This document shows, one piece after another, positions 1 through 40,000 of a stretch of 40,000 nt of DNA. The translations under genes and the position numbers were made by a program. The notes under the pieces were generated by a model, which saw only the letters and a program-made list of their open reading frames with translations, had not been told where the DNA came from and made no database searches. This DNA comes from Paenibacillus sp. 1P03SA. Lineage in GTDB: Bacteria; Bacillota; Bacilli; Paenibacillales; NBRC-103111. Where the stretch lies: the NCBI RefSeq assembly GCF_047238265.1, contig NZ_JBDFMM010000001.1, positions 4,931,245-4,971,244 on the forward strand, written 5' to 3'. Position 1 is the first letter of the stretch. Each line of letters begins with the position of its first letter.

Positions 1-1028
1 CGAAGAGTTACCGATGAGAACATCTTAAGTTGTACCGGACTACCGAATAGAATTTGTAATGTTTCCAAACAATCTTCGGTCACAGTTGCAGAAAGTAGTA
101 ACGTACGGAATGGAGTAACTGAATGACGCAACATCATTTTACGCCATCCTGCAAGTTCTTGAAATGCAGGACGAAACCCCTCACCCCAGCCAGAAACAAT
201 ATGCGCTTCATCAATGACTAACATCTTGAAATAACCACGCTCAGCAGCAATCTGCAACGAATAATCTAAAGATTCAAGAACACTTTCTGGAGAGGCAAAT
301 ACGATACGCTGCGTTCCATTCATTATCGATTCTTGAATTTCTTTATTTTCTCTTTGACGTGAACTACTGGAAAAATATGCAGATGGCCGATTAATCAGTG
401 GCATTAATGCACGTTCCTGATCCAAAGCTAGTGCAACGGTTGGAACTACGACGACCGTAACGCCTTCTTGTCTTGAGAACAGGAGCGCTGGCAATTGTCC
501 ACACAAACTTTTTCCAGTTCCAGTAGGAAGGTTTAATAATATTGTTGCATCTTGAGGTGAAGTAAGCACAGTGCGCACTGCAGCACGCTGTGCATTACAT
601 CTGTAATTCAGTCTATTTACTTCCTTTAAAAATGGATCTCCTTCTACTTCCTTCATTTGATTACGTGGTTTCAATGCAAAAAGTGGTCTTTCAGGACCTT
701 CTTTATCGGCCTGTGGGAGCCAATTAGGCAACCAAGTCTCAGCACACAATAAATACGAATCCCGAACTTCATCCAATATAACTATTCCAACTAATTTATA
801 CATTAATTCATTTGGCCAATTGGCTCTGCGAGGGACACGCAGAAATATGCGCTCCCCTCCACTTCTTTCAGATTCATAACGTAAAACGCCCCGAATCAGT
901 GCTGCTAAATCCATCCCAATGGCACCACTCTGAATTGCTTCAACAAATCTACTAATAAAAGGATTGCTTGGTTTAAAGATTAAGTTTTCATTTAGAATCC
1001 ATTCCTGCAATTCATCAAATTCATTCAA
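1..1028 (-). CDS. RecQ-like DEAD/DEAH-box helicase, N-terminal ~342 aa only (continues beyond the window start); DpdF-like by position
   Basis: This ORF is not in the track, so I translated the minus strand by hand. A TTG start at 1028 overlaps the TGA of the upstream SNF2 gene (TTTTGA) and is preceded by GAGGAGGG. Motifs are NLPTGTGKS (Walker A), MLVIDEAHIVSGWGEGFRPAF (DEAH plus RecQ-type motif) and LLLSATV (motif III). Confidence 0.75.
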   Translation of the reverse strand, partial: MNEFDELQEWILNENLIFKPSNPFISRFVEAIQSGAIGMDLAALIRGVLRYESERSGGERIFLRVPRRANWPNELMYKLVGIVILDEVRDSYLLCAETWLPNWLPQADKEGPERPLFALKPRNQMKEVEGDPFLKEVNRLNYRCNAQRAAVRTVLTSPQDATILLNLPTGTGKSLCGQLPALLFSRQEGVTVVVVPTVALALDQERALMPLINRPSAYFSSSSRQRENKEIQESIMNGTQRIVFASPESVLESLDYSLQIAAERGYFKMLVIDEAHIVSGWGEGFRPAFQELAGWRKMMLRHSVTPFRTLLLSATVTEDCLETLQILFGSPVQLKMFSSVTL

Positions 1029-4000
1029 AATGTGGTCCCTCCTCTTCGCACTGACTTCAACAAGTCCCTTCCTGATAAAATTATAAATCCTGCCGAATCC
1101 AACTGAACTTTGGGTTGCTTTATACCCTGGACTATAGCCTCATACTGCTCCTCGTCAAATACATCATATGTTACCGAATCACCTTCGAAAAGTTTTCTCA
1201 TCTCCACTTGAACTTTTAAATAATTGAAATGGTTGATTGCAACTTCTGCTTTTGTTCTGCATTTTTCAATAAACTTAGGATCCTCATTTAAATATTGGCG
1301 TGACTGGGATGAAATCAAATCACATACTTTTTGCCATTGCTTTGTTGTAAAAATGTCACGTATTACTTTTAATCTATCTTTTATTATACTCGTATCCGTT
1401 CCACCGTCTTCCACATCACAATAGGGCCTAGCCAGCAAGTATTCAAGTTCGTCATCTACTCTATTGCCTTGATAATCAAGTATAACTTCGACATAAGTAG
1501 GCTCGAAGAACTTATCCAATAGTCGTTGATATACTTTTGAATCCACTTGGAGACCCCTTACCTCTAATAGATTTAATAACGGTTTAAGATCCCCCTCTAC
1601 AATGTAAAGGAGGCGAAATCCTAACCAATCTGTATCTTGTGTCCAAGACTTTACTTTTCTCCAAAATGCATAAGTTTGACCTCGATCATCCTTACGTAAA
1701 TATTCACTAAGAATATCAAAGAATGGATCACCAAGACGAAACAATTTGTAGTTGTTGTTTTTAATCACAATTTCGCGATCAAAGCAACCTGGTCTTTCCA
1801 TCTGCTCGTTAAGAGCAACCAAGTGTTGCGTAGGTAAAAGCGTGCCAAAAGCGGGCTTGTAAATAATTCGGCCTTCTTTTTCAATTTTTTTAAATCTCAT
1901 AGCTTCACATACCCAAGGCTCAAGTGATTGCTGTATTCTCTCTGGATTGCTTTCGTGAAGAACTAACTGATCAAAGAAACCATTTGCCTGTTGCTCATGA
2001 GCATCGATTTCATCAATAATCTGTTGTTCAGCAATCCGCACTTTCTCATCATGAATTTTAACCCTCATTCCCTCTATGCTTTTTTCTAACCCTGGTAACC
2101 CATCAATATAAAGATCGCGTAAAACGTCGGGTAGGATAGCATCAATGAAAAATTGCAAAGATGATATTGAATCGTTATAAATATTTAGGCCTTCTTTCAA
2201 AAATTGATGCCATCCCCACTGATAATTGACCTCTGCATCTGGGCCAGTTAGAACTGATATTCGAAATGGCTTATTACGACCTATACGATCAAGTCGTCCA
2301 ATTCGCTGTTCCAGTTGATTTGGAGCAAACGGCAGGTCATAATGAATCATTTCATCTGCAAACTGAAAATTACGACCTATTTCACCAGTTTTATCACATA
2401 CGAGTATCTGACACTCGCTATTATCACGAAAATTAGTTGTAACTAACTCAATTTGCTCTCTATTCAATCCCATATAATATCCGCCTACTGCCTCATCACC
2501 AAACGTTTCTTTCAGAAACTGAGTAACCTGCTTACAGACACGAGTATGTTGAGTGAATACTATAATTTTTTGAGGGGACTTTTTTTTGTGTTGTGCCCGT
2601 GTTTGAGTATGTTGAATCATTGTCGCTAGTAATTGATTTTTATCCCCCATTTCACTAGGGTAAGCAAATACTCTCAATAGGCGATCCAACATTTCTGATT
2701 CTCCCTCAAAATGCGGAGTCTCAACAATATACTGCAAATTAATTTTACTGAAGATTTCAGACATATCTTCTATCAGTTTTTGTTCTTTACGAATTTTAAC
2801 TAGATCACGAAGCAAATTTTCATCGGTGCATACTGCTTCAAGAAAAGACCTCCAAATACTAAGCCGAGGGGAAGTGACTGCACTTTCATCCTCCCATACC
2901 TCCCTCTCTGCTGCCCACGATTCTATACGATAATCATCCAAAATAAGATGAAGTTCTTCCGTTCTCTCATCCAGATCCCACTCTTCCATAACCGGTAGCT
3001 CTCCCCTGTGATGTTGAAACAAGGATGTAGCATTATCCCTTCGATTACGAAGCATCCGACGATGTAAGCGATAGGTTTCTGATATATGTATACGTATGCG
3101 GCGAATCAATTCCTTCCGTTTTTCTTCATACTTAGAATCTAAAGTCATTTCCAATTCGTCTAATAATGACATTAATAATTTATCTTCACTAAAGAGAATT
3201 CGGAAATTTCCAATTCGTCTCTGAATTAAGAACGGTTTCGTCTCCTCTCGAAATGACAATAGACCTTTACCTACTTCTTGTCTCTTATTTAACTTGTATC
3301 TAAAGGCATCAATGTCCTCTAAACGGTGTTGCTCAGGCGCTAAAATATGCAGCATAGACAAGAACTCCCATTCATTGTTTAACACTGGAGTAGCAGATAA
3401 CAAAAGCAATGTTTTAGCACTATGACACATATTTTTCAAAATGTCATAGTTTCTTTGTTCAACAGGATCCTTAGAGAAAGCCATTCTTGCTAATTCATGT
3501 GCCTCGTCTACAATAATGATGTCTGGTATGTTGTTGTAATTATTATCAATAGATTCTAACCCAGCAAAATGAATTCGCTCAGGAAATTGATCTATTAGAC
3601 AACGCTGTGTTAATTCGTCTTCCCACTGAGTTAACAAATAGTTAGGAGCCAAAATGATTGCCTGATGATTTGGATAATCCAATAGCTTCTGACGAAGGAT
3701 AACTCCTGCTTCGATAGTTTTCCCCATTCCGACCTCATCGGCAAGTAAGTATCGAGGTATAGGATCCTCTAAAACTCGGCGAATTACCTCAACTTGATGA
3801 GGCAGTATCTCAATGCCCGAAGAAATCAATCCCGTCATTCCGCTAGCAACTGCTCGCTGTTCTATTAACATCTGTAAAAATGAATTGCGCCTCTGATAAA
3901 AAAAAGACGTCTCCTGCCCTAGAATTGACAAAACTTCCATAGGATTAGTAGTAGAATCAGCACATCGGACAAATAGATCTTCTTGAGGAATATAACGAGA

Positions 4001-4285: not shown

Positions 4286-4330
4286 TGAATTTCCTCCAAG
4301 TAGAAATTAACTCTAGTAAGAAACGACGAT

Positions 4331-4367
4331 CTGATTAAAAAAATAAGACCCTACAAAAGTAGGGTCT
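4331..4367 (-). terminator. Rho-independent terminator located between a promoter-like element and the SNF2 gene
   Basis: On the minus strand the sequence is AGACCCTAC-TTTT-GTAGGGTCT (9-bp stem, 4346-4354/4359-4367) followed by TATTTTTTTAAT. Confidence 0.6.
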
Positions 4368-4429
4368 CTCTAAGTCCAAATTATAGTTTAATATATTTCA
4401 AGTGCCACTACGCCCTTATTATTAGTATA

Positions 4430-4457
4430 ATCATACCAAATACCAGGTGATTGTCAA
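4430..4457 (-). promoter_or_regulatory. Sigma-A-type promoter (extended -10) upstream of the leader and SNF2 gene
   Basis: On the minus strand, TTGACA (4457-4452) is followed by a 16-nt spacer ending in TG, then TATGAT (4435-4430). Confidence 0.5.
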
Positions 4458-4537
4458 TCTCTGTATTGTAAAAAAACGGATGAAGATTCTTTCGAATTAC
4501 TTTCATAGAAGATCACGTCTGTTCCAAACAAATCACT

Positions 4538-5284
4538 TCAAACCCCGCGTTTGTTACCCCACAACAAAGTGTGTAACTGCGGGAGAACTTTAACTTGTCT
4601 CAAATCCGAGGAAGCCATGACTTGATTAATCAACCATTCATACTTCTCTAATAAAGAAAGCACTAATCCTTCTCTATCTACTGTCGTTACATCGCTATTA
4701 CCCACCTGCAAAACTAGCCTCATGTGAGGATACCGTTTATGAACTTGTACAGCATACTGAAGATCATCTTCATCAAAAATGACTACTTTAATACATATTT
4801 CATTAGAACTATTGTTCAAGTTCTCGATAACCTCGTCTAATTTAACCCAATCGGTTATCATTCCTGAACTTGGTGCTTTCGGGGAAATCGTCAAATCATC
4901 AATATCTGCCATCCACTCTTGCCATCTGCTTCCTTGTGTCTCTAATCCAACTCGAATCCCTTGGTCATGAAGGAGATCCACTAAGTATCCAATATTCTTT
5001 AAAAGTGCTGGATTACCACCAGAGATTGTTACATGCTCAAAAGTGGTTCCACCAAGAGTCTTCAATTCATCCCAAACCATTTGGGCAGATAATTGTTTAA
5101 TTTCATTCTTTGCAGAACCATCCCATGTAAAGGAAGAATCACACCATGAACAGGAATAGTCACAGCCGGCTGTTCGAACAAACATTGTTTTTTGTCCAAT
5201 CACCAGACCTTCTCCCTGAACGGTTGGACCGAATATTTCCAGCACCGGGATGGGCTTTTCCTTATAAGTCAATCTGCCATCCAC
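4538..5284 (-). CDS. queE: 7-carboxy-7-deazaguanine synthase QueE (radical SAM)
   Basis: The CDYSCSWCD (CxxxCxxC) cluster motif sits after GPTVQGEGLVIGQKTMFVRTAG. Length of 248 aa is typical of Bacillus-type QueE. The GTG start overlaps the end of queD. Confidence 0.9.
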   Translation of the reverse strand: MDGRLTYKEKPIPVLEIFGPTVQGEGLVIGQKTMFVRTAGCDYSCSWCDSSFTWDGSAKNEIKQLSAQMVWDELKTLGGTTFEHVTISGGNPALLKNIGYLVDLLHDQGIRVGLETQGSRWQEWMADIDDLTISPKAPSSGMITDWVKLDEVIENLNNSSNEICIKVVIFDEDDLQYAVQVHKRYPHMRLVLQVGNSDVTTVDREGLVLSLLEKYEWLINQVMASSDLRQVKVLPQLHTLLWGNKRGV

Positions 5285-5760
5285 TCCCGTCTTGCTTCGG
5301 CACAGCTGGTTGGTGTTTCAAATAACCGAACAAATTCAGTTCTTGCATCCACGTCTTTTGATGAGTATTTATCAGTAGTTAGCGCTGCTTCCATCTGCTC
5401 ATAAAGCCAAACAACCAAGTTTTCAGCAGTCGTATTCATTAACGGCAACGTCTCATTTAAATATCTGTGGTCTAAGTATGGCTCTATTTGCTCACGCCAA
5501 ATTGTTTTTATCATTCCAAAATCTATCGTCATGCCAATTTCATTTGTATATCCACTTACTCCAAAAACAACTTTATAGGTGTGACCATGTAGATTTTTAC
5601 ATTTGCCCTCATATGCATGTAAGTGATGCGCCGCGTCAAAAGTAAATTCTTTACTGACTAATACTCTGCGCTGATGATATTTCAACTGTTCTTGAGTAAT
5701 ATCCTCTTTAAACTTTTGCAATGCATCTACAATAACGAATTGCCCTGGTATTTTGTTCAT
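5269..5760 (-). CDS. queD: 6-carboxy-5,6,7,8-tetrahydropterin synthase QueD
   Basis: Motifs FTFDAAHHL and CKNLHGHTYKV are the PTPS/QueD zinc-site histidines. I place the start at the internal ATG 5760 (MNKIPGQF), which has GGAG 9 nt upstream. The longer track ORF would overlap queC by 76 nt. Confidence 0.88.
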   Translation of the reverse strand: MNKIPGQFVIVDALQKFKEDITQEQLKYHQRRVLVSKEFTFDAAHHLHAYEGKCKNLHGHTYKVVFGVSGYTNEIGMTIDFGMIKTIWREQIEPYLDHRYLNETLPLMNTTAENLVVWLYEQMEAALTTDKYSSKDVDARTEFVRLFETPTSCAEARREWMAD

Positions 5761-5765
5761 AACAA

Positions 5766-6428
5766 CTACTCCGAATTTTTTCCCTGTAAAAATTTTTCCA
5801 AACCAGCTTTTCTCAACTGGCAAGCAGGACAAGTGCCACATCCATCACCGATAATACCGTTGTAGCAAGTCAAAGTCTTTTGGCGTACAAATTCAAACGC
5901 TCCTAATTGATCTGCCATTTCCCACGTCTCTGCTTTATTAATCCACATCAACGGAGTATGAATTATAAAATTATGATCCATCGCTAAATTTAACGTCACA
6001 TTTAGGGATTTGATGAAATCATCCCGGCAGTCAGGGTATCCACTAAAATCTGTCTCGCAGACGCCCGTTACAATATGTCTAGCATCTACTCCTTTAGCAA
6101 ATACCGCGGCGAAACTTAAAAACAAATGATTACGTCCTTCCACAAATGTGCTCGGAAGTTCACCATCATTATGAACAATTTCGAGGTCATTACGTGTCAG
6201 AGAATTCTGAGTTAGTTGACCGAGCAAGCTCATATCAAGTAACGTCCACTTTACTCCAAGTTCATCAGCGATTTGTTTAGCACATTCAATTTCTAAAGCA
6301 TGCCTTTGTCCATAATTAAAGGTGATTGCTTCAACTTCGTCAAAGTGCTTCATTGCCCAAAACAAAGAAGTTGTACTATCTTGACCGCCACTAAAAACTA
6401 CAACGGCTTTTCTGTTTTTTTGTTCCAT
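5766..6428 (-). CDS. queC: 7-cyano-7-deazaguanine (preQ0) synthase QueC
   Basis: [14 protein letters not shown] is the PP-loop ATP pyrophosphatase motif, and the C-terminal [10 protein letters not shown] is the zinc motif. I prefer the ATG at 6428 (MEQKNRK) by analogy with Bacillus QueC. The GTG at 6440 is the alternative. Confidence 0.9.
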
Positions 6429-6494
6429 AATCTTACCCACTTTCTCACCATTCTCCCTTAATGATAACAGATGTACTATTTTATCGAAAGTTGC

Positions 6495-9400
6495 CTATTT
6501 ATCGTTGCTCACAACTAATCTTATCTCTACAACTTCAAACAGATTAGGAAACTTCTCTTTAATCTCTTCTAACAGACGCTTACCTTGAACTGGTGGAAGG
6601 GTACTATAACCATTCTCAATGAGTAATCTAATATGTCTTTTTATAGAAGGCCTGATTTGAGAATTGTGATTTATTCTTTCGAGCAGGTGATAGATATTAC
6701 CAACGTCTTCATATTCAAGATCATTCCGAATGACTTCAAGAAGGTTTATCTGGATTTGCTCATGTTGAAGTTTTCTTTCGACCAGTTCTTTTAATTCATA
6801 AAAGTCCATCGACTGCCACTCATCAATTACGGAATTGAGTTCAGATTCAATCTGTGAACCCTCCATTAAGAGTTCAACACATGCAATCATTTTTAATCGA
6901 AGTTCCTTAATTGGCTTTAGAATTTTTAATTGGACTTGAAGATTTAACAAATACTTAACTATAGTGCGCGGAGTTAAAGCAAGACAGTTTTTTAGATTTG
7001 ATACCTTTTGCATATTAGCTAGAATTATCCTTTTTTTCTTCTCTAATTCAGACAAAGAGAACTTACCATCATCAACGATTTCTACTCCGACTTCTTCATA
7101 ATTCGCATGCATACCACACTCAATAAGGAAGTCAACTACTTCCATTAAATCCTGGTCAAATTGCTTTAATAACTGATCAACTTCATTGTTTAAAGCAAAG
7201 AACCTATTAAATTGGATGACTAGCTCTGGTTGTTCTAATTGTTGTTCAAGCAGCGTATAGTTCACAAGGTCTTGTTGTCGAAGAAATTTCTTTTCGTTAA
7301 AAGTACAGATTTGGTCTGCAAGTTTAATCCATTCTGCTCTACTAGAACCCATTAGAAATGGTATCATCATTAGTCTTTTTTCAATTGATTGCCTAAAGCT
7401 TTGATGAAGCAGTTCAAGATAACCACTATAGCTTTCTTTTAAATTTGATAGGAATTCCTTCAAGGTTAGATTGCCTATTATATAGCTTTCTAACGTTTTA
7501 GAAGGTACAAGATTTAATAACCATAGATCAAATTCTTCATTCGCTAATACATCATCATCTGGTGTCTCATAAAAATTTTCACGTAACAAATACCAATCTG
7601 AATAACATTCATCAAGCAACGACATTAAGTCTTTGTTGAAGGGAGATTTTCCTTTCGCATCGTAAGTCCATGAAGATTCACTATATATTCTGGCTTGTTG
7701 CGCCCAATTCCTCATTCCATACACAAATACAGGTAACTTCAACCCAAGAGCCTGCTCGAGAGATTCAAACCATAATTTATGAATATTTTCTGCCTGATAT
7801 ATCCACTTTGAAGTTTCATATTCATTTGAGATTTTTTGAAATATATTTAATTTTTCTGAATACTTCATCGTTTGAAAGTTGGATATTTGAATACCAATGT
7901 AATCACGATTTACATTTATAGAGAACTCATCATTTTTGTCTAGTTTAATAGGATATCGCGTTCGATGTACAACTTCATTCCATTGAATAACTGAGGAGGT
8001 TCGAGATGTGAATGCGCGGTTCATATGTACCCCCTTTATAACATCATGTACCAGAGCAGCCACCCCAGATCTAACAGGTAATAATAGTTCATCGTTTACT
8101 TCTTTTCCTTCTATCCAATCTCTGACTACCTCTTTTTCATTGAAGACAGTATTATCATTTTTATACTCTATATGAAGCGGTTGTTCTTCCCTTGTATTAC
8201 CTGCTGCTATCTTGTTTAACTTAATAGATATTTGAGTTTCGCTATAACCAAAGTGCTTTAACAAAGGTTCAGAAATTATCATTTGACTTGCATCTTCAGA
8301 CGCATACCATTCAGATAGTGTTTTAATAAACATATCTTCATGCTCCGCAAACATTTCCCTGCGTATAAGTGGAAGGACTCTACTAACATGCTTTTTACCT
8401 TTTAGAAAGAAGCGTAAGATTTCCTTGCTATTCAGTATCATGTAACGTAATTTACCTTTTCCTATAGGGATAGCATCGTATGTGCGTCTTAGCATATGAC
8501 TATTAAATGGGAGCACCTGAACTCCAAGATAATTAAAATTAGAATCTTTATTGCTTTCCTCTGGCAGAATACCAGAACATTGTTTGAAGTGCGGACATTT
8601 GAGAGAGCAGTTAAATCCCTGTGTCGCTTTCAGTTGGGTAAGATAATTTGCTATATAGGGTACTACTTGCTTACGATCAAGATTGAAAAAGTCTTTCCCC
8701 GACTCATCCGATAGCCATAGCTTTTTTACACGATCATTAATAGTATCAAGATTCTGTATTCTTTGTGTGAGACTAAACCCCTTCTCTGTATCCTGAACTG
8801 CACCAGGTGTCAAACCAATGACCACATCCCAGTTTCCTTCTTCTAATGTGATAAGTTGATCAAGGATACTGGTTGCGTAAATATTTACTGATTGAACTAG
8901 ATCATCAATCAACAACAAAGGACGGATTCCTCTGCTTTTTATCTGCAAAGACATTTGTTTAAAAAGGGTTCCGATATCTTGTCCCTCAAAAAGAAAATGG
9001 TCCAACTGCCGCGAGAGATTTTGTCGAAATGCTGCGTATTCTAATGGAATATGAAGGGTTGTATTGGCGAGCAAAGTTTCAAACTGTTCCCGATGCAGCA
9101 CCTCTAATGGATTTTTAATTTTTCCTCGTTTAACTTGTGATGTAAAATCAATAATATTTTGCTCAATCACCGGCCTTAACAATAGTGCTGTTGGAACGAT
9201 CTCCTCATCGGACTCCATAGCTTCCGCTAATGTTGTCCAAACCATTTGGTTAACAAGCGTTATAGGCTTTTTAAGCAAAATCCCCCACCTGTCTTCATCA
9301 ATACAAACATCTAGGGATAAATTCAGTGTGTCTAAACATTTTTTGATTAGGGTCTGAGGATTTAGTTCTGTTCGTGAGATTCGTATCACGGGTCTATCTG

Positions 9401-9692
9401 ATACCTCCACTAGCCACTTATCTTTTAACCAACGAAGCAATTCGGATTTACCCGATCCTGTCGAACCGAATACTAAATAAACTCTGTTGCCGCTAGCATC
9501 AGTTTCTTGAAGTTCTTCCAACAGTTCATCTTCCGTAACCTCAGCGACTAACTGACTACCATTATACCTATGCATTACTTGCGGAAAATGTGTTTTTCTG
9601 AAGTATTCAGGTGATAGATCATATCGCTCATCTGCAGTACCAGCTAAAAGTTTAAGCGAATTTTTGTTGAGACAAGGAAGCATTAGTATCAC
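6495..9692 (-). CDS. Large P-loop NTPase of unknown family (1065 aa)
   Basis: Track ORF. Walker A is LVFGSTGSGKSE (aa 73-84) and the Walker-B-like motif is RPLLLIDDLVQ (~aa 257-267). The remaining ~750 aa look helical with no motif I recognise. The start is uncertain (GTG 9692 or ATG 9683), and either choice overlaps the upstream 258-aa ORF. Confidence 0.7.
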   Translation of the reverse strand: MILMLPCLNKNSLKLLAGTADERYDLSPEYFRKTHFPQVMHRYNGSQLVAEVTEDELLEELQETDASGNRVYLVFGSTGSGKSELLRWLKDKWLVEVSDRPVIRISRTELNPQTLIKKCLDTLNLSLDVCIDEDRWGILLKKPITLVNQMVWTTLAEAMESDEEIVPTALLLRPVIEQNIIDFTSQVKRGKIKNPLEVLHREQFETLLANTTLHIPLEYAAFRQNLSRQLDHFLFEGQDIGTLFKQMSLQIKSRGIRPLLLIDDLVQSVNIYATSILDQLITLEEGNWDVVIGLTPGAVQDTEKGFSLTQRIQNLDTINDRVKKLWLSDESGKDFFNLDRKQVVPYIANYLTQLKATQGFNCSLKCPHFKQCSGILPEESNKDSNFNYLGVQVLPFNSHMLRRTYDAIPIGKGKLRYMILNSKEILRFFLKGKKHVSRVLPLIRREMFAEHEDMFIKTLSEWYASEDASQMIISEPLLKHFGYSETQISIKLNKIAAGNTREEQPLHIEYKNDNTVFNEKEVVRDWIEGKEVNDELLLPVRSGVAALVHDVIKGVHMNRAFTSRTSSVIQWNEVVHRTRYPIKLDKNDEFSINVNRDYIGIQISNFQTMKYSEKLNIFQKISNEYETSKWIYQAENIHKLWFESLEQALGLKLPVFVYGMRNWAQQARIYSESSWTYDAKGKSPFNKDLMSLLDECYSDWYLLRENFYETPDDDVLANEEFDLWLLNLVPSKTLESYIIGNLTLKEFLSNLKESYSGYLELLHQSFRQSIEKRLMMIPFLMGSSRAEWIKLADQICTFNEKKFLRQQDLVNYTLLEQQLEQPELVIQFNRFFALNNEVDQLLKQFDQDLMEVVDFLIECGMHANYEEVGVEIVDDGKFSLSELEKKKRIILANMQKVSNLKNCLALTPRTIVKYLLNLQVQLKILKPIKELRLKMIACVELLMEGSQIESELNSVIDEWQSMDFYELKELVERKLQHEQIQINLLEVIRNDLEYEDVGNIYHLLERINHNSQIRPSIKRHIRLLIENGYSTLPPVQGKRLLEEIKEKFPNLFEVVEIRLVVSNDK

Positions 9693-10428
9693 ATCTCCCC
9701 TCTACTTTAATCCAGTTCAACGTATTTTTTGGCCCATAGGATTTATATGGAAGGTCTTGCACATAACTCAATTCTATTTCCCCTGCCTCAGCTAATCCCA
9801 TCAATGAAAAAATAATCGCCTTGTATATTTTCCCTTCTGATGTCAAGCACGGAATAACTGGATGAATAAATTTTTCACAGAATAGATGTAACCCACCCTC
9901 CCATGTCTCACTTCTTTCAATGATACTTTTTATTAATGAAAGTTGTGGAAGGGCGTAAAAACCGGAGTAGACACGTCTTCCCAATCCCCAACATTCCATC
10001 ATTCGCTTCCATGCATTTATTTTTTCATGACCAACTACTGTCTTAATTAACTGACTATTAACTTGGTAATGAATATTGCTCAAAAATAGTCTATCTGGCT
10101 TTACAAATAACTGTTCAAAAATAGTCGCAAATATATGATCAAGAGAATCGCTAGGTATAGTATCAGAATTCGAGATTTTCCTTAACCTTAGAAAAATTTC
10201 TTTGTTAGTCCAAGCTTTATTTTGTGACACATAAAATTGTGCTTTGTCTTTATATATGAATTGCAAATCTTCTAATACCGTCAAGGCACATTCGATTAAA
10301 GAGGTAATGTCACCCTCTTCCCTATACTGGAATTTTGTTTTCAACCCATTTGTATCCAATCCAGGCTTAGTTCTTAGTTCCTCATAAATTACTTCAATTT
10401 CTGGCCCGTAACACATCTGGAACAACAT
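9652..10428 (-). CDS. Hypothetical protein (258 aa), island-specific
   Basis: Track ORF. There is a strong RBS, GGAGGG, 6 nt before the ATG at 10428. It overlaps the 3' end of dpdA by 35 nt and the NTPase start by ~40 nt, suggesting operonic coupling. No motif recognised. Confidence 0.6.
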   Translation of the reverse strand: MLFQMCYGPEIEVIYEELRTKPGLDTNGLKTKFQYREEGDITSLIECALTVLEDLQFIYKDKAQFYVSQNKAWTNKEIFLRLRKISNSDTIPSDSLDHIFATIFEQLFVKPDRLFLSNIHYQVNSQLIKTVVGHEKINAWKRMMECWGLGRRVYSGFYALPQLSLIKSIIERSETWEGGLHLFCEKFIHPVIPCLTSEGKIYKAIIFSLMGLAEAGEIELSYVQDLPYKSYGPKNTLNWIKVEGRCDTNASLSQQKFA

Positions 10429-11326
10429 GTTCGTCCCTCCTCTGCTTATTTTCTAAAATATCTTTAAATGTTCTTGATAAGTGATAATAATTGTGGACTG
10501 ATCTTAACTTCATATATTCTCTTGGTGAAGGAATAAAAATCTGTTTTGCATTAATTTTACACACAGGGCATTCACAATGAAGTGGGTTTTCCAATCGAGG
10601 GCTTGTGGGTTTTGCTCTGGATTCTGATAGAAAAAAAGTTCTAAATGGTCTACTGTAAAATACCTGAAAGAATGCAGCGGCCATTGTTGGTCGAGTTGAA
10701 TCAAATGACTTTACTCCAATATCAACCATCGCATTAAGTTGAGGAATCCCTGTTACTCCAAAGACATGAAGGTTTGCAGATCCAACAACATCTGAAGCCC
10801 TCCTAATCATTTCAATTTGTTCAGTCTGATGTTTAAATAACAAGGACCCAATCCCAAAATTTTTATATCCCATCTTAATTAACTCATAGGCTGAAAACTC
10901 TATACTAAATTGGTCATAACCTTGTATCACTCCCATTGGTTCAACAAATTTAGGAAGCTTATACCTATTAAAGAGATTTAAATATTCGTAGGCATTAAAT
11001 AGTGTTCTTTCAATGGCCATGTAACGTTCAGATAAAGAATTCTTATTCAGCAGAGGTTCATCAAAATGAACCATTTGAATTTTGGCCGTTGAATCACAAT
11101 CTTCCAAGATTGATTGTTGAATATCAAAAACATCTTTTAGCGGGGGCCTACTCTTTTGTTTAACATAAAAAACTGATCCACAATCTAGTATTAACTTTTT
11201 GGGTTTGTTTCTATACTTCTTTACTCCTCCTCTATTGTCTGGAATTGCACTTATTAACACCGAACACGTAGGAAAGTAATCACAAAAAATTGCATCACTA
11301 TGTGACCAACCAATATAAAAATCCAC
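10394..11326 (-). CDS. dpdA: DpdA-type (TGT-fold) 7-deazaguanine DNA transglycosylase, 310 aa
   Basis: TGT hallmarks, in order, are LILDCGS (Asp region), GVIQGYD, LHVFGV and SFDSTRP. The zinc site is HCECPVC...VHNYYH (CxCxxC...H). It lacks a PUA or tRNA-binding extension and sits next to queCDE. The GTG start has AAGGAGGG upstream. Confidence 0.78.
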   Translation of the reverse strand: MDFYIGWSHSDAIFCDYFPTCSVLISAIPDNRGGVKKYRNKPKKLILDCGSVFYVKQKSRPPLKDVFDIQQSILEDCDSTAKIQMVHFDEPLLNKNSLSERYMAIERTLFNAYEYLNLFNRYKLPKFVEPMGVIQGYDQFSIEFSAYELIKMGYKNFGIGSLLFKHQTEQIEMIRRASDVVGSANLHVFGVTGIPQLNAMVDIGVKSFDSTRPTMAAAFFQVFYSRPFRTFFLSESRAKPTSPRLENPLHCECPVCKINAKQIFIPSPREYMKLRSVHNYYHLSRTFKDILENKQRRDEHVVPDVLRARN

Positions 11327-11341
11327 ACTACGCCCTCCTTT

Positions 11342-11361
11342 TTATACGTGATTATACGTGA
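11342..11361 (-). promoter_or_regulatory. Perfect tandem decamer (TCACGTATAA x2 on the minus strand) in the dpdA promoter/leader; candidate operator
   Basis: The plus strand reads ttatacgtga ttatacgtga. The repeat lies between an extended -10-like TGCTAAAAT (11377-11369) and the dpdA RBS. One copy itself creates a TATAAT (11356-11351). Confidence 0.55.
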
Positions 11362-11400
11362 TAATTGAATTTTAGCATATTTTTCTTCATACAACTACTC

Positions 11401-11436
11401 TAAAAATATAAAAAAAGAAGCCCTCAGGCTTCTTTT
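11401..11436 (-). terminator. Rho-independent terminator ending the transporter-distal transcription unit (after the 264-aa gene)
   Basis: On the minus strand the sequence is AAAAGAAGCC-TGAG-GGCTTCTTTT followed by TTTATATTTTT. The stop codon TGA of the 264-aa ORF lies in the loop. Confidence 0.7.
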
Positions 11437-12218
11437 ATCCATTGTCTCCATATTTCATATATTAATCCGCGTTGTTCATCATTAAATTTAAATCGGCCAT
11501 TATTTACATGTAAAACAGGGTTATCTCTATCAAAAAACTTGCCACTCCATTTTTCAAAATGAAATTTCTTTAATAGCAATGGCCGCGGCAAATTCGTCAT
11601 TTGAGAACCAGCAATCCATTGTTCGATGAAATATCTAATATAGCAGTACCACGCTATAGAGGAGTCAGCAATAGATTTTTTTCGGAACTGTTTTCTTTCT
11701 ATTACAGAAAGGTATCCTAATTCAGGGTAATCATTCATTAAAGAGTCAACGTATTTAATTAAATCTTTGGCTAATTGAGGGTATAAACTACGCTCAATTC
11801 GATAGTTTAGAAAATCTTCAAAAATATCATGTAGCGATCTAATGGTCATTAGCTTAGTGGAGTTGCTACTTATTTTTTCTCCCATCTCAATTAACCGTTC
11901 AAAACGCTGATAGGACATTAATTGATGTACGCAGTAACTAGGGAATTGTTGGACTTCAGATACAATTAGAACAACATATTCATCACCTTTACTACCGTTG
12001 GGCAATTTGTATGTAAACTGTGGGTTTGTCACTTGTAATTTATTGTTCATTAAATTTACAACAGTATCATAATTGATTAAAATGACGTCTTCGCCAATTA
12101 CATCAGACTGAATTACAGGAAAACCCCAGTCTTTAATAGCACCTAATGGCAGTACTGTAAAATAAACATCATCATTCTTTCTGGTTAAATTGCTTACGTT
12201 TTCAAAAGTAAAAACCAT
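11424..12218 (-). CDS. Hypothetical protein (264 aa), island-specific
   Basis: Track ORF. The RBS GGGGGA lies 6 nt before the ATG at 12218. No motif recognised. Confidence 0.6.
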   Translation of the reverse strand: MVFTFENVSNLTRKNDDVYFTVLPLGAIKDWGFPVIQSDVIGEDVILINYDTVVNLMNNKLQVTNPQFTYKLPNGSKGDEYVVLIVSEVQQFPSYCVHQLMSYQRFERLIEMGEKISSNSTKLMTIRSLHDIFEDFLNYRIERSLYPQLAKDLIKYVDSLMNDYPELGYLSVIERKQFRKKSIADSSIAWYCYIRYFIEQWIAGSQMTNLPRPLLLKKFHFEKWSGKFFDRDNPVLHVNNGRFKFNDEQRGLIYEIWRQWIKEA

Positions 12219-12233
12219 GGAATTTCCCCCAAC

Positions 12234-12272
12234 GCAAATATGCCTTAGTGTACCACACTAAGGCATATTTGC
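12234..12272 (-). repeat. Perfect 18-bp inverted repeat (3-nt loop) between the 684-aa and 264-aa genes
   Basis: The arms are gcaaatatgccttagtgt / acactaaggcatatttgc. The repeat starts 3 nt after the TAG of the 684-aa ORF and ends just before the RBS of the next gene. No U-tract follows on the minus strand. Confidence 0.8.
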
Positions 12273-12275
12273 GCA

Positions 12276-14312
12276 CTATTTATTCCACCGTTTCTTCAAT
12301 TCCTGAATCTGACTGTAGTATACATGAGTATTATGAAAGCCTCTTCGTCTGTTCCTATTGTTACCTCTGAATACTATCACATCAATTCCAATTTCCCTAC
12401 ATATATTACAACTGCATTGTTCCCATGGTCGTTCAGATAAAACCTCTCTATACAAATCCTCATGAACATCGCGCTTTTCGCCAAGTATTTTGTCATATTC
12501 CAGTATAGCTTCAAGTGTAGAATCTAACTCCCTTGTCCCCGTGCTGAATTCCCTAAGAGCACCTAATGCCTCTTGTTCAAGCCTTCTATATTCCACAAAC
12601 TCTATTTCATCACTATTTTGCAACATTTTTTTCACTCTTCCAGATGTTTCTTTCGCTTCTGGAATTCTAATTGCTGTATAGTGTTTACCACTCAAAGAGT
12701 GGTAATTATGTCCTGTTCCTAACCATGCCCTTCTCAACGGTGAAGAAGAGTCAAATGATGTTACACCCAATTTATGAAAAGACTCCATTGTTCTCACATC
12801 TCGCGCAACCCCGAACAAGTGCATTCGAAACGTAGGACTTGGAATAATAGGAGCTATCTCTTTTAGAATTTCATATATTTTTTCAGACTGTTCTCTGGCT
12901 AAACCTCCTAAGGCAATATAGTCATAACCTAATCCAATAAGATACTCGACCGCTCTTCGGAAAGAGGGTGGGTCCCAGCCTTGGACTATTCCTATCGGAT
13001 GGAACTGATAGTTCTTTGTTTCTCTATTTTCCCTATACATACGTAAAAATTCTTCCGCCATCGTAAGGGTTAGTTCATAGCGCTGATTTCGAGTATTTTC
13101 ATCTTTCTGGAAGGGTCCCACTATTAGATGGTCAATAGATACACCATAATCAAAACCTAAAGTATGATAGTAATCCATAATTTCTTCGGTCGTATAAGGT
13201 GGTACATCTTTATCAATATAACTAAAAGCGCCACAATCACCCATAATAGGATACTCTCTAGGTAGTTTATAAAAATCGTGCAAGCCCATATCTTTAATCA
13301 TCTGATTTTTTTGTTTGGTGGCACTATCAATATTCACTTTAGAAACGAGCAACCCATCAAACTGAGGTCTATCAAAAATCTGATGAGCATACACATCATT
13401 TTCTAATGGATTTCTATTTTTTTCTGAGAAATCAGCCATAAAATCATAATTAGGATCTACCCTATCATCATTTTCTGGAAGATAGAACCTTGGTTCCTCG
13501 ATGCAATTTATAGCAACCAACTCATCTGGTACAGGGAACATTTCATTGTAAAACTTTAATAGATCTTCTTTATCCGATGAGTCACTAAATAGCTCAGGTT
13601 GTTTAATTGAAGCAATTGAATCTAAAATAAACGATCTAATTTGATCAGGATGATGGGCTATTGTATCCCATTTCTGATCAATATTAGCTGTAATAGTACT
13701 CCTCAATAAATGTGCGAAAAGATACCCTTTAATACCTATCAATCCATATTTAAATGTTTTAGCTTCTTTTTCTCCAATAGTTAATACATGATAATCGTCC
13801 CAATTTAGAATTCTAGAACGACTGGATGCTCCAGCAAAAAAGATAGCTTTTTGATTTTTTTTAAGCTTTAGTGGCCACTCTACAGCTTGTAGATACTTAT
13901 CTCCGAGCAAGAAAAAAATAATATCGTATTCAGCAACCTTTTTTTGTAGTGCCTGTGTGATTTTGAGTTCACGCGCCCATTTTTTTATAGTCTGCGAATC
14001 CATTGTATTAAAAGTCACTTCATAGGGAACAATTTGCGCATCTTCATTCAGAAGGCCATAACCCGCTGAAATTATGCAAAGGTCAATATTTCCACCCTTT
14101 TGCCTATATTCTTTAATACCAGTCATTAGCGCAAGATGCTGACTACCTGTGTACATTTCATCAGCACGTTCTTTGAATTCCAATAATTCTTCTTCTCTTT
14201 GTTTTAATACATCTTTATTCTTGAAATCATCAAATACAAGCTGATTTATCGGTTTATGCAACTTCTCTCCAGTACAAGAAGTGACAACAAGAATACGTTT
14301 CGACAAAAACAT
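12276..14312 (-). CDS. Fusion protein with an unknown ~340-aa N-terminal domain plus a C-terminal TGT/DpdA-type transglycosylase domain
   Basis: The C-terminal half has IMGDCGAFSY, GIVQGWD, MHLFGVARD, SFDSSSP and the zinc site CSCNIC...FHNTH, in the same motif order as the 310-aa DpdA. The N-terminal half has VVTSCTGEK ... IISAGYGLL ... VPYEVTF. I prefer the ATG at 14312 as start. The GTG at 14330 directly abuts the upstream terminator and has no RBS. Confidence 0.8.
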   Translation of the reverse strand: MFLSKRILVVTSCTGEKLHKPINQLVFDDFKNKDVLKQREEELLEFKERADEMYTGSQHLALMTGIKEYRQKGGNIDLCIISAGYGLLNEDAQIVPYEVTFNTMDSQTIKKWARELKITQALQKKVAEYDIIFFLLGDKYLQAVEWPLKLKKNQKAIFFAGASSRSRILNWDDYHVLTIGEKEAKTFKYGLIGIKGYLFAHLLRSTITANIDQKWDTIAHHPDQIRSFILDSIASIKQPELFSDSSDKEDLLKFYNEMFPVPDELVAINCIEEPRFYLPENDDRVDPNYDFMADFSEKNRNPLENDVYAHQIFDRPQFDGLLVSKVNIDSATKQKNQMIKDMGLHDFYKLPREYPIMGDCGAFSYIDKDVPPYTTEEIMDYYHTLGFDYGVSIDHLIVGPFQKDENTRNQRYELTLTMAEEFLRMYRENRETKNYQFHPIGIVQGWDPPSFRRAVEYLIGLGYDYIALGGLAREQSEKIYEILKEIAPIIPSPTFRMHLFGVARDVRTMESFHKLGVTSFDSSSPLRRAWLGTGHNYHSLSGKHYTAIRIPEAKETSGRVKKMLQNSDEIEFVEYRRLEQEALGALREFSTGTRELDSTLEAILEYDKILGEKRDVHEDLYREVLSERPWEQCSCNICREIGIDVIVFRGNNRNRRRGFHNTHVYYSQIQELKKRWNK

Positions 14313-14330
14313 CCCATCCTTTATTAACAC

Positions 14331-14360
14331 AATATAAAATAGGGCGAGAGCGCCCTATTT
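14331..14360 (-). terminator. Rho-independent terminator after the transporter gene
   Basis: On the minus strand the sequence is AAATAGGGCG-CTCT-CGCCCTATTT followed by TATATT. Confidence 0.6.
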
Positions 14361-14381
14361 ATAAACAGCTTTTGCTTTGTT

Positions 14382-14900
14382 TTAAAAAAATTTTTTTACA
14401 ATCATTGCAGCGAATAATTGAACCAATGTTTTAACAATGATTTGACCGACAATAGCCAAAAACACAGCATTCCATGCAAGAATATTGGCTCCCAATGGGG
14501 ATAGACCAACAACAACAAAAATAATACTATCTAATATTCCTCCAACAATCCCGCTGTATGCTACCCTCATATGAAAAGGTAGTTTAAGACGTGAATAGAT
14601 TTCGGTATCTGTGGTCTCAGATACTGCGAATGTAATAATTGAAGCAAACACAATCCAAAGTGTGTCACCAAGTAAATATGATGTTAATGCTGATAAAACC
14701 ATTGCTATTAAAATAAATAAATAAGTCTTCTGCCGACCAACATAATTTTGTACAAAATCGCGGAATATAAATGTTGCCCCTATTATAAAAGTCCCTGCCG
14801 GAATAATGAAAGGACCGATAAAAAACGGGGGTACTCCTGCTGTCACGACATTTGATGAAATAATAGCTATTAAATAAGCTATAATTGTTAAGTATTTAAT
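14382..14900 (-). CDS. yhhQ: YhhQ/VUT-family queuosine-precursor (preQ0/preQ1) transporter
   Basis: Polytopic membrane protein with GTFIIGATFIFRDFVQNYVG and ETTDTEIY-type motifs recalled from YhhQ. The track ORF starts at GTG 14846. However, the in-frame upstream codons encode a first TM segment (KYLTIIAYLIAIISSNVV), and AGAGGTGA lies 7 nt before an ATT at 14900, so the 5' end is uncertain. Confidence 0.72.
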   Translation of the reverse strand: MKYLTIIAYLIAIISSNVVTAGVPPFFIGPFIIPAGTFIIGATFIFRDFVQNYVGRQKTYLFILIAMVLSALTSYLLGDTLWIVFASIITFAVSETTDTEIYSRLKLPFHMRVAYSGIVGGILDSIIFVVVGLSPLGANILAWNAVFLAIVGQIIVKTLVQLFAAMIVKKFF

Positions 14901-14933
14901 TTTACATCACCTCTTCATTTCTATCCATCACTA

Positions 14934-14942
14934 ATTATAACA
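14934..14942 (-). promoter_or_regulatory. Extended -10 promoter element (TGTTATAAT) for the transporter gene
   Basis: TGTTATAAT is read on the minus strand, ~30 nt upstream of the RBS. There is no good -35. Confidence 0.45.
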
Positions 14943-15289
14943 TCACTTTTTGTTCCGAGCTACCCTCGCCAGACTAATTAATTTATCCAATCGTTGGCTA
15001 GTTTGGGGTACAAAAACATCTCGTTCTTCTTGATAACCTATCAAATCGAGTTAATTTAATTGCTATATTAACCTTCCATACATTACCCTACTCATCCCCA
15101 TCAAACAATTCCGATAAACCACCTGTCCACGGATGAAGGATACATCGGCCACCTTGCCATTCCCATTTCCGGAACAACCTTGACACAGAAGCATTACTAC
15201 AACAATGAACATTTATGGCCACGCTCATGGGACTGTCGATCAAGCTGCTGCTGCTGATAAATTCGAATTATTCTTTACATCTAAACCTC

Positions 15290-23139: not shown

Positions 23140-23451
23140 TTCTCGCCCTCCCAGATACAAATCTTTTCTGTTCTACTTTACGATACATAATGTAACTTGT
23201 AAATAGGTTATTTGAATTATTGATACAAAATGTTTCAAAAATAGAGTAGAACTCATTTCCTGGTACCTGCCGCCCTGCGAATAGCCCTTTCGTTTAAGGT
23301 CATACTAAGCCAAATTGCTCTGTTTTTCCTTCTTTGAAAACCGCCATCCTAGCAATTTCGTTCTTAAAATTCCGGCTTCTTATGCTTTCTTATTAAGTTT
23401 ATAAAGAAATAATTTTTCAGAGAAATTTCGGCGTATTGGAGGGTTTCGTGA

Positions 23452-24047: not shown

Positions 24048-24202
24048 CTGCCGCCGCTTCATCGATGTCCATGCTTTATCGTGAATTCCGCCCGGCCTCT
24101 ACTTCATGGAGTATAATGCTCCAGCACGATATCGTTCCGGTTCTGCCGCCGCTTCACGGCCGCTCATGCTTTAAGCGTGGTTTCCGCCGGCCCTTACTTC
24201 AT
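24048..24202 (-). repeat. Imperfect ~60-bp direct repeat; the last codons of purD plus the downstream sequence are duplicated 95 bp further on
   Basis: Copy 24143-24202 and copy 24048-24107 share ATGAAGTA(A/G), GGCCGG(G)CGGAA, AAAGCATG and GAAGCGGCGGCAG blocks (minus-strand reading). Confidence 0.55.
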
Positions 24203-38394: not shown

Positions 38395-38448
38395 ACTGCA
38401 AGAGACACAAACATAAGGCACCCCCTTCCGGGATCCCCTCGCTTCGCT

Positions 38449-38516: not shown

Positions 38517-38530
38517 ATTGTAAACAATTA

Positions 38531-39427: not shown

Positions 39428-40000
<573 letters not shown>

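Follow-up and report, generated by a model that had tools for sequence, protein, structure and literature searches.

A probable DpdB-lacking, two-transglycosylase Dpd island in Paenibacillus and the conserved gene trio that accompanies it

How does a DNA transglycosylase of the Dpd type engage its substrate when the island that encodes it lacks a recognizable DpdB? This question is raised by the 40,000-nt stretch of Paenibacillus sp. 1P03SA DNA analyzed here (hereafter the window), which begins with the right-hand 15 kb of a Dpd restriction-modification island that was acquired horizontally and measures roughly 28 kb in all. In Salmonella enterica serovar Montevideo, DpdA depends on the ATPase DpdB, and the need for ATP hydrolysis has been called an enigma (PMC10164549). 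A preliminary description of the window had proposed a 7-deazaguanine island of the Dpd type that provides for its own preQ0 and resides in a Gram-positive host, and this is borne out by the family matches of DpdA, DpdE, DpdF, QueC, QueD, and QueE and by the Paenibacillus origin of the DNA, two of the island proteins (of 1065 and 264 aa) having 100% identity to proteins of Paenibacillus sp. 1P03SA. The island very probably represents a subtype of Dpd that has two proteins of the tRNA-guanine transglycosylase (TGT) type and no DpdB. Between the DpdA gene and queC it carries a trio of overlapping genes that encode a small TGT, a distant paralogue of DpdG (DpdG'), and a paralogue of DpdH (DpdH'). 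The best explanation overall, to which we give about an even chance, is a Dpd island in which this trio takes over or supplements the function of DpdB.

The modification side of the island includes a 684-aa protein in which a DpdC-like domain precedes, as an N-terminal fusion, what is by sequence a true DpdA. Residues 281-677 match the DpdA model NF041059 with 448 bits (cutoff 200), and the protein aligns with the solved S. Montevideo DpdA (7ui4) at E = 3e-91 with the catalytic and zinc residues conserved. Asp95 (general acid/base), Asp130, Asp256 (nucleophile), and the CxCxxC...H zinc site are all kept in the DpdA part, and the roles of these residues have been described (PMC10164549). The N-terminus matches PF21818 (DUF6884), the Pfam family of DpdC (PMC12235509), with 50.7 bits against a cutoff of 30, and it matches the PADLOC DpdC model at E = 3e-11, the match spanning only about half of the DpdC profile length. 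The preliminary description had found no DpdC-like open reading frame (ORF), which is to be corrected, since the domain forms the N-terminus of this protein. Fusions of this kind are widespread, occurring at full length and with 42-44% identity on cyanobacterial plasmids, where they are annotated by NCBI as dpdA, while in two metagenomic relatives (L024 and L025) DpdC and DpdA are separate, adjacent genes.

The precursor, preQ0, would be supplied by the island itself. QueC, QueD, and QueE all exceed their NCBIfam cutoffs (Table 1), in keeping with the dedicated preQ0 pathway first proposed, and no folE gene is present in the island. The QueD ORF reaches 5841, with a probable start at Met28 that gives a protein of 163 aa, as called in the corresponding island of P. 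amylolyticus (L001). A YhhQ-type precursor transporter had likewise been predicted, and the candidate passes the Pfam cutoff for Vut_1, though it is short and scores 35 bits with TIGR00697, under the cutoff of 51. Its gene covers 14382-14906 at the longest and its start codon is uncertain, the product having 154-174 aa as compared with about 220 aa in another locus (L009). An in-frame stop lies directly upstream of the YhhQ-like N-terminal stretch, and the short form is kept in close relatives.

The restriction arm, judged from family matches and from nearly identical islands, is the standard one with DpdD moved to its end. Two of its genes lie in the window. The preliminary description had seen an SNF2 helicase translationally coupled to a RecQ-like helicase; the coupling holds, the TGA stop of the first gene overlapping the TTG start of the second (TTGA), and the two proteins are ordinary DpdE and DpdF. 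The DpdF fragment at the left edge of the window scores 359 bits over positions 6-348 of the 813 of NF041063. DpdD, DpdG, DpdH, DpdI, DpdJ, and DpdK are read from the same island in three Paenibacillus genomes (L001-L004), in which the islands are 82-93% identical in nucleotides. The arm is regarded as standard because these close relatives continue leftward with full-length DpdF (807 bits in L004, cutoff 550), DpdG (142 bits), DpdH (792 bits), DpdI, DpdJ (1771 bits, cutoff 800), and DpdK (180 bits), followed by an ORF with a DpdD-like start; all named bit scores are over the cutoff, and DpdI is weak, at 62 bits against a cutoff of 150. Absence of DpdD was considered and ruled out, given its place after DpdK in the relatives. 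The different parts list that was first claimed for the island does not apply to the restriction arm, which by the evidence of the relatives is standard Dpd, and does apply to the modification side, where the trio is found and DpdB is not. A standard dpdA-K set to the left of the window would have made this an ordinary Dpd island, and such a set is seen in part in the relatives, which show DpdF through DpdK and the start of DpdD, with no dpdB and no second dpdA or dpdC.

A more distant version of the island is found on plasmid pART37 of Paenibacillus sp. 37, whose proteins are about 50-64% identical to those of the window island and whose NCBI annotation already names dpdA, dpdF, dpdJ, and dpdK. 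Here too DpdD, a 935-aa protein with 439 bits against a cutoff of 300, comes after DpdK. The genes are ordered as DpdC-DpdA, the homologue of a 264-aa protein of the window island, the small TGT, DpdG', DpdH', DpdJ, DpdK, and DpdD, and then DpdE, DpdF, DpdG, DpdH, DpdI, DpdJ, DpdK, and DpdD. The plasmid therefore holds two DpdJ-DpdK-DpdD sets, one right after the trio and the other after DpdE-F-G-H-I (L013 20019-42061 and L028 1-15061), an arrangement that looks like two tandem restriction modules.

No ParB-like or DpdB ORF had been recognized in the preliminary description, and three kinds of search agree with this at the island. None of 10 island proteins matches NF041060 or TIGR03187 in NCBIfam; a tblastn search with the true DpdB of L005, which is a canonical island of an actinomycete, finds none in the window, in L001-L004, or in L008; and hhalign of the unknown island proteins against DpdB gives E > 0.3. 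DpdB is also not annotated in the approximately 60 kb of pART37 and is not found through the DpdD start in the close relatives. The possibility that the 258-aa protein (DpdG') or the 264-aa protein is a diverged DpdB, DpdD, DpdI, or DpdK was rejected, with all hhalign comparisons at E > 0.1.

The first member of the trio is a minimal TGT-fold protein of 310 aa. Its best model is DpdA, at 78 bits and under the cutoff of 200, and its closest solved relative is again DpdA 7ui4 (E = 1.5e-6). With the bacterial tRNA model TIGR00430 it reaches 23 bits against a cutoff of 307 and with the general tgt model TIGR00449 it reaches 37 bits against 48, so that only the superfamily model PF01702 is passed, and orthology to tRNA Tgt or ArcTGT was rejected. 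Both TGT-like proteins of the island score far under the tRNA Tgt cutoffs. An alignment of 11 members from different loci with DpdA cores shows no variation at the positions equivalent to D95, D130, and D256, in the QG and HxFG motifs, or in the CxCxxC...HN site; a linker of about 25 residues stands in place of the 130-residue Ins8 helical domain of DpdA. The full TGT/DpdA motif set that had been noticed in the two proteins (DCG/DSG Asp, second Asp, QG, HxFG, FDS, CxCxxC...H) is thus upheld, and the small TGT looks catalytically active. Its pocket loop is GSLAPL-like in most members. The preQ0-selecting loop of DpdA and archaeal TGT has the bulky motif GGhsbb (PMC10164549), and the resemblance of the GSLAPL-like loop to this motif fits a preQ0-type substrate, which we infer for the small TGT.

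The second member, DpdG', is a 258-aa tandem winged-helix protein and, by profile comparison, a distant DpdG paralogue. Its AlphaFold2 model (mean predicted local distance difference test score, pLDDT, 90) consists of repeated H-H-H-E-E winged-helix units, and its Foldseek matches are all multi-winged-helix proteins, none of them significant. The family has no match in Pfam, NCBIfam, PADLOC, or the PDB, and with 50 members searched against Pfam at E = 10 there is no signal for DpdG (NF041064, PF28110), BrxA, or DUF4007. The relationship emerges from hhalign with a diverse alignment, in which DpdG' matches DpdG with a probability of 88% and E = 3e-6 over 226 columns, nearly the full length, while five control families give E > 0.1; an earlier comparison built from close homologues only had given a probability of 9-19%. 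Only 73 clusters (50% identity) of this rare family exist in a set of 1.84 billion representatives, and it is absent from viral contigs. PHROGs likewise contain nothing for the trio apart from one weak phage match for the small TGT.

The third member, DpdH', is a 1065-aa ORC/Cdc6-like P-loop ATPase and, by the same kind of comparison, a paralogue of DpdH and not its orthologue. In hhalign its N-terminal 400 or so residues match DpdH with a probability of 98% and E = 1e-13 over 341 columns, and the DpdH model NF041065 gives only 34.5 bits (cutoff 450), confined to the N-terminal 100 residues. All of 44 homologues keep Walker A (G76-S83) and Walker B (D263-D264) unchanged, and the ATPase looks active. 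The AlphaFold2 model has a mean pLDDT of 83 and finds RdrA, Cdc6/ORC, and TrwB as its best Foldseek matches; the C-terminus gives coiled-coil noise only against PDB sequences. DpdH and DpdI have themselves been described as BrxC-like (10.1101/2025.09.15.676423).

The two transglycosylases and the additional large P-loop protein of the preliminary description are therefore present as DpdA, the 310-aa TGT, and the 1065-aa ATPase. Of the two proteins described there as orphans, DpdG' has found a family, and the 264-aa protein encoded between the DpdC-DpdA gene and the trio keeps its status. The latter matches nothing in any library searched, NCBIfam, Pfam, and PADLOC among them, and hhalign relates it to none of the Dpd proteins. 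Its homologues number only seven, all in Bacillales-type loci, and the gene in the same slot in Peribacillus encodes a protein with 26% identity (E = 2e-14).

About 17 distinct loci have the genes for the small TGT, DpdG', and DpdH' side by side; they belong to Paenibacillus, Peribacillus, Dethiobacter, Desulfocucumis, a Ktedonobacteraceae genome, and several metagenomes (Bacillota, Chloroflexota); the fetched loci were annotated with profiles built from these same loci and with precomputed Pfam labels. In 16 of the roughly 17 the trio stands beside Dpd genes, whether DpdA with DpdC (fused or split), DpdJ/K/D, or DpdE/F, and 16 of them have no DpdB within the stretch visible. The neighborhood first described in this one genome, trio and Dpd genes together, is thus conserved across phyla. 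DpdG'-DpdH' lie upstream of DpdC/DpdA, Vut_1, and QueC and are co-oriented with them in L009, L019, L023, L024, and L025, and the small TGT is often transcribed divergently from the same intergenic region as DpdG'-DpdH'. The canonical DpdA+DpdB island L005 is without the trio. The G/H and G'/H' lineages coexist in one island. In L030, one of the 16, the trio is found beside non-standard effectors, namely a PD-(D/E)xK nuclease, a UvrD helicase, and a 1761-aa helicase. The surroundings in L011 (8250-22487, with L012) are a tyrosine integrase, a SIR2-nSTAND-FGE-sulfatase protein, a 1008-aa protein, and a weakly DpdJ-like helicase. In L032 the genes for QueC, Vut_1, the DpdC-DpdA fusion, and the small TGT share their operon with a DndB/DpdB-like gene (2455-3609).

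The layout of the window island bears on how these genes may be expressed. Eleven genes had been described as co-oriented, and they all lie on the minus strand, as does every long ORF of the low-GC (guanine plus cytosine) part. They are transcribed in the order Vut_1, 684-aa protein, 264-aa protein, 310-aa TGT, 258-aa DpdG', 1065-aa DpdH', queC, queD, queE, 1086-aa SNF2 helicase, and truncated helicase. The 310- and 258-aa genes overlap by 35 nt and the 258- and 1065-aa genes by 41 nt, the latter in parallel with DpdG/DpdH, and the gap of 55 nt between the trio and queC is without a hairpin; the trio appears to be co-transcribed with queCDE. Terminator-like hairpins with T-runs are found 3' of Vut_1 (14360-14337) and 3' of the 264-aa gene (11436-11413). 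A palindrome next to the DpdC-DpdA gene is also kept in the P. amylolyticus island and is likely a (bidirectional) terminator or an operator. The 253-bp gap between queE and dpdE holds a hairpin (4368-4345) and a promoter match (4457-4430; TTGACA-16-TATGAT, 11/12, with TG), which suggests a separate transcription unit for the restriction arm. Because hairpins, palindrome, and promoter match separate gene groups, at least three transcription units, as originally claimed, are plausible, the promoter and terminator calls being consensus matches only. No tRNA genes or Rfam elements, including the preQ1 riboswitch, are present in the island.

Table 1. Positions of the island genes and other features in the window, with the matches or properties by which they were assigned
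Feature	Position	Strand	Basis or remark
DpdF N-terminal 343 codons, DEAH/RecQ-like helicase	1..1028	-	runs off the left end of the window
DpdE, SNF2-family helicase, 1086 aa	1025..4285	-	NF041062 equivalog 929 bits vs cutoff 500, full length; PADLOC DpdE E = 3e-210
queE-dpdE gap, 253 bp	4345..4457	-	promoter-like site and hairpin with T-run; consensus scan
QueE, 7-carboxy-7-deazaguanine synthase (radical S-adenosylmethionine)	4538..5284	-	TIGR03365 370 bits vs cutoff 206
QueD, 6-carboxytetrahydropterin synthase	5269..5760	-	TIGR03367 104 bits vs cutoff 89; PF01242 119 bits
QueC, 7-cyano-7-deazaguanine (preQ0) synthase	5766..6440	-	TIGR00364 272 bits vs cutoff 150; PF06508 277 bits
DpdH', 1065-aa ORC/Cdc6-like P-loop ATPase	6495..9692	-	C-terminal third helical
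DpdG', 258-aa tandem winged-helix protein	9652..10428	-	overlaps both adjoining genes
Minimal TGT-fold transglycosylase, 310 aa	10394..11326	-	PF01702 53 bits vs cutoff 26
264-aa orphan, fast-evolving	11424..12218	-	hairpins on both sides
Perfect palindrome, 19-bp stem, 3-nt loop	12233..12273	.	between DpdC-DpdA gene and 264-aa gene
DpdC-DpdA fusion, 684 aa	12276..14330	-	DUF6884/DpdC-like at about 10-270; DpdA transglycosylase 281-677
Short Vut_1/YhhQ-family transporter, putative preQ0 importer	14382..14846	-	PF02592 57 bits vs cutoff 27
Island right-hand end	14977..15100	.	homology end at 14977; GC 0.37 to 0.51-0.59
rlmD	15458-17113		first gene past the right end of the island

Taken together, these parts can be assembled into a working model. 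Host GTP cyclohydrolase, QueC, QueD, and QueE, with the Vut_1 importer, would provide the preQ0 supply; the DpdA part of the fusion is of the enzyme type that exchanges DNA guanine for preQ0, and the DpdC part is of the type that then turns this base into its amide (dADG). DpdE and DpdF, with the DpdG, DpdH, DpdI, DpdJ, DpdK, and DpdD of the relatives, would restrict DNA that is not marked in this way. The trio would take over or supplement the ATP-dependent engagement of DNA for which S. Montevideo uses DpdB. Since DpdA of that organism needs DpdB and the present subtype is usually without it, DpdG' and DpdH' are proposed as the source of this engagement; by analogy with BREX, they would find and open target sites, where a transglycosylase would be offered the guanine. 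The small TGT would be a second writer and possibly also a reader of 7-deazaguanine already at the site. The trio is treated as one unit on the modification side because its genes overlap, its gap to queC is free of hairpins, and it is co-oriented with DpdC/DpdA, Vut_1, and QueC. Two other designs in which DpdB is not detected, on cyanobacterial plasmids and on a haloarchaeal plasmid, also pair DpdA with a second small TGT near NTPases. A role of the trio on the writer side, as suggested by gene order and family relationships, is tentative and falls somewhat short of an even chance.

A bolder form of the same model can be drawn from BREX, where the methyltransferase PglX depends on a BrxC-containing complex for modification at its sites. 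The small TGT, DpdG', and DpdH' might be a self-contained, ATP-driven DNA transglycosylase machine, the 7-deazaguanine counterpart of PglX-BrxC, in which a BrxC-like AAA+ ATPase would open the site instead of DpdB and the TGT would both write and read the mark, linking modification and restriction. We regard this as possible, though on balance improbable. If it is true, the two-TGT designs without detected DpdB in Bacillota, cyanobacteria, and haloarchaea would form a separate, as yet unnamed class of Dpd-like systems.

Several observations weigh against a writer-side trio or against the frame in which it is placed. DpdG and DpdH sit in the restriction operon of canonical Dpd, and the model gives no reason for a second catalytic TGT. 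The L011 trio has no visible DpdA, preQ0 genes, or standard Dpd genes, and in the available parts of L022 and L031 DpdA is not seen. L032, a metagenome-assembled genome locus (GCA_023459215.1), has the trio as well as the DndB/DpdB-like gene, the product of which is 25% identical to true DpdB (E = 7e-17). It is the only locus seen with both, and because it carries both, the trio is not a strict replacement for DpdB; that stronger reading, considered at one stage, is weakened accordingly. On a haloarchaeal plasmid (L029, described below), a G'/H'-like pair heads a helicase/nuclease operon, which fits sensing or restriction as well as writing. In addition, the left part of the window island is inferred from islands that are 82-93% identical in nucleotides, and promoter-like sites in the window are fewer than in shuffles.

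Among the alternatives, the one that fares best places the trio on the restriction or sensing side, where the small TGT would flip the base and read G against 7-deazaguanine, DpdG' and DpdH' would couple it to DpdE-K, and the fusion alone would write. It would account for the paralogy of DpdG' and DpdH' to DpdG and DpdH of the restriction operon, for the haloarchaeal pair at the head of a helicase-phospholipase D (PLD) operon, for the pART37 trio directly before a DpdJ-DpdK-DpdD set, for the L011 trio with a DpdJ-like helicase and no visible DpdA, and for the presence of a DpdB-like gene besides the trio in L032. A pure reader, however, would be free to lose its catalytic residues, and the small TGT keeps all of them, including the nucleophile Asp, in 11 of 11 members. 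The trio also appears to be co-transcribed with queCDE and lies upstream of DpdC/DpdA, Vut_1, and QueC in most loci, and a DpdA that works without an ATPase partner would contradict the ATP dependence of the S. Montevideo enzyme (PMC10164549). We consider this placement of the trio to be unlikely.

Less probable still is a composite island, in which a standard Dpd system would have its preQ0 supply and effectors in common with a second TGT system, the latter setting a mark of its own that differs in motif or in the 7-deazaguanine used. The two DpdJ-K-D sets of pART37, the solitary trio of L011, the different effectors next to the trio in L030, and the presence of G/H and G'/H' lineages together in one island speak for such a composite. 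Yet the trio hardly ever occurs apart from DpdA/DpdC and Dpd effectors, which accompany it in 16 of about 17 loci, no second base-tailoring enzyme stands beside it, and the pocket motif suggests the same preQ0-type substrate. A composite would also leave the function of DpdA without DpdB unexplained.

It is very improbable that the island is an ordinary canonical Dpd system whose DpdB gene lies beyond the window, on its left or at some other place in the genome, and that the extra genes are unrelated cargo: the left part of the island is known from relatives only and DpdB is reported in a 2016 review from 92% of dpdA genomes (PMC5699537), but pART37 has no DpdB in about 60 kb, the relatives have none through the DpdD start, and the trio is conserved with Dpd genes across phyla and has overlapping reading frames. 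The least credible reading makes the 310-aa TGT a tRNA-modifying enzyme for queuosine or archaeosine carried along with the preQ0 genes, for which its Pfam TGT match and the NCBI label of the pART37 homologue as queuine tRNA-ribosyltransferase could be cited, but its scores are under the tRNA Tgt cutoffs, its closest model and structure are those of DpdA, at 310 aa it falls short of the bacterial Tgt model (368 positions) and far short of the archaeal one (441 positions), it is also without the Ins8 of DpdA, and its gene overlaps that of DpdG' and is found only in Dpd-type islands.

The subtype matters in several ways. Neither the Dpd system nor its chemistry nor its restriction arm is new, and parts of related islands are already annotated as dpd genes. 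Of the proposal that this is an undescribed variant of 7-deazaguanine-based self/non-self discrimination, what remains is the trio: the conserved set of three genes and its paralogy to DpdG and DpdH appear to be undescribed in the literature searched, as apparently does the recurrence of a second TGT beside NTPases in Dpd-like systems without detected DpdB. The system itself is less exotic than was first thought. A subtype that is usually without DpdB offers a comparative handle on the role of the ATPase in DNA transglycosylation, and it bears on what DpdG and DpdH do in standard Dpd. There are also consequences for annotation. The large 2025 survey required dpdA and dpdB together and could not see the subtype because both were required (PMC12235509), and any survey built on the same pair would miss it; the small TGT is now labeled as a tRNA enzyme, and the other trio members are labeled as hypothetical or generic P-loop proteins.

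The right boundary of the island is sharp, as the compositional break first placed near 15.1 kb had indicated. GC content is 0.33-0.41 (33-41%) up to about 15.0 kb of the window and 0.51-0.63 (51-63%) beyond, so that an island of 37% GC ends at about 14,980 within a Paenibacillus chromosome of 57% GC, and the P. amylolyticus island is 93.3% identical over 14,977 nt, with homology stopping at window position 14977. In P. amylolyticus a group II intron reverse transcriptase/maturase (L001 44-1283) lies a few kilobases from the island end, while the island of the window abuts rlmD, and the insertion sites therefore differ. The right flank continues from rlmD with dagK and the pur operon. A purine riboswitch at 38433-38535 (minus strand; Rfam RF00167, 77.5 bits vs cutoff 37) stands upstream of what appears to be the pur operon down to purD, in which purD (24194-25462) and purH (25482-27026) were identified. 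A gene at 21907-23160 (minus strand) encodes a 417-aa protein that combines MORN repeats with an N-terminal domain of the copper amine oxidase type; it lies within a patch of 44-46% GC in the high-GC flank, and the adjoining ORFs are without a family match. At the right edge of the window an rRNA operon ends, with 5S rRNA at 39181-39297 and the 3' end of 23S rRNA at 39432-40000, both on the minus strand.

The island can finally be set beside the systems that it resembles. With the tRNA TGTs (bacterial Tgt, ArcTGT, QTRT1/QTRT2) its two transglycosylases share the TIM-barrel fold, the catalytic aspartates, and the zinc site; they differ in falling far below the tRNA Tgt cutoffs and in being found only in defense islands. 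Classical TGT enzymes act as dimers, and a pairing of DpdA with the small TGT is therefore conceivable. Closer in content are the plasmids of the cyanobacteria Nostoc NIES-3756 and Picosynechococcus PCC 73109, which like the window island have a DUF6884-DpdA fusion and a second small TGT, though a different one, flanked by NTPases, with no DpdB annotated. They differ in that the second TGT lies between two Hel308-like helicases and that DpdG'/DpdH' and DpdE-K are absent. In Nostoc (L014 12789-18450) and Picosynechococcus (L027 3832-9403) the two helicases that enclose the small TGT overlap, and the DpdC-DpdA fusion is next to them; the Nostoc second TGT, at least, has no zinc motif, and in Nostoc a HerA-like ATPase and LlaJI-type restriction genes come after this set. 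On a plasmid of Allocoleopsis PCC 7113, the DpdC-DpdA fusion occurs with a DndB protein.

A further relative comes from the archaea. A Natronococcus plasmid (L029 27041-34172) encodes DpdA, DUF6884, and a 344-aa second TGT, together with a hypothetical protein of 300 aa, a protein of 383 aa annotated as "BREX system ATP-binding", and a transporter for queuosine precursor; this locus comes after two 1830-aa helicases and a PLD nuclease, and no DpdB is annotated. Its G/H pair scores higher with the DpdG'/DpdH' profiles than with those of DpdG/DpdH. BRIGADE systems are reported only from halophilic archaea and have ARMADA-like YprA helicases, usually two, and the main text of the preprint makes no mention of TGT or DpdA (10.1101/2025.09.15.676423). 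Likeness to BRIGADE was judged through L029, a plasmid locus that comes from the same archaeal group and may be such a system. The window island shares with it DpdA and DUF6884, a second small TGT, a BREX-type ATP-binding protein, the Vut_1 transporter, and, in the Dpd effectors, a PLD nuclease. In contrast to BRIGADE, the host is the bacterium Paenibacillus, the helicase of the relatives is a canonical DpdJ (1771 bits vs 800), DpdE and DpdF are present, and G/H/I and G'/H' occur together.

The BREX-related capture (BRC) system has a TGT but neither DpdB nor DpdC, and an NTPase has been proposed to stand in for DpdB; its features are PglZ, a DUF6079 BrxC-like ATPase, a STAND NTPase, DUF4007, and HerA/FtsK (PMC12839542, 2026). 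None of these families is found among the island proteins in NCBIfam, Pfam, or PADLOC. What the island has in common with BREX and BRC is that a DNA-modifying enzyme is joined by a BrxC/ORC-Cdc6-like ATPase and a multi-winged-helix DNA-binding protein. It differs from them in lacking PglZ, PglX, BrxB, BrxL, HerA/FtsK, and GNAT, and islands of its type have the Dpd helicase and PLD nuclease effectors, DpdA, and the DpdC domain.

The nearest known system is canonical Dpd, as represented by dpdA-K of S. enterica serovar Montevideo (PMC10164549, PMC5699537). The window island has the catalytic aspartates and zinc site of its DpdA, the DpdC-type domain, DpdE and DpdF (DpdG-K and DpdD being seen in near-identical islands), and a history of horizontal transfer, as well as island-borne preQ0 genes and a YhhQ-type transporter, which are common in Dpd islands (PMC12235509). 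It departs from canonical Dpd in having no DpdB, in the fusion of DpdC to DpdA, and in the position of DpdD after DpdK instead of before DpdE, and it adds a small TGT, a DpdG paralogue, a DpdH paralogue, and the 264-aa orphan.

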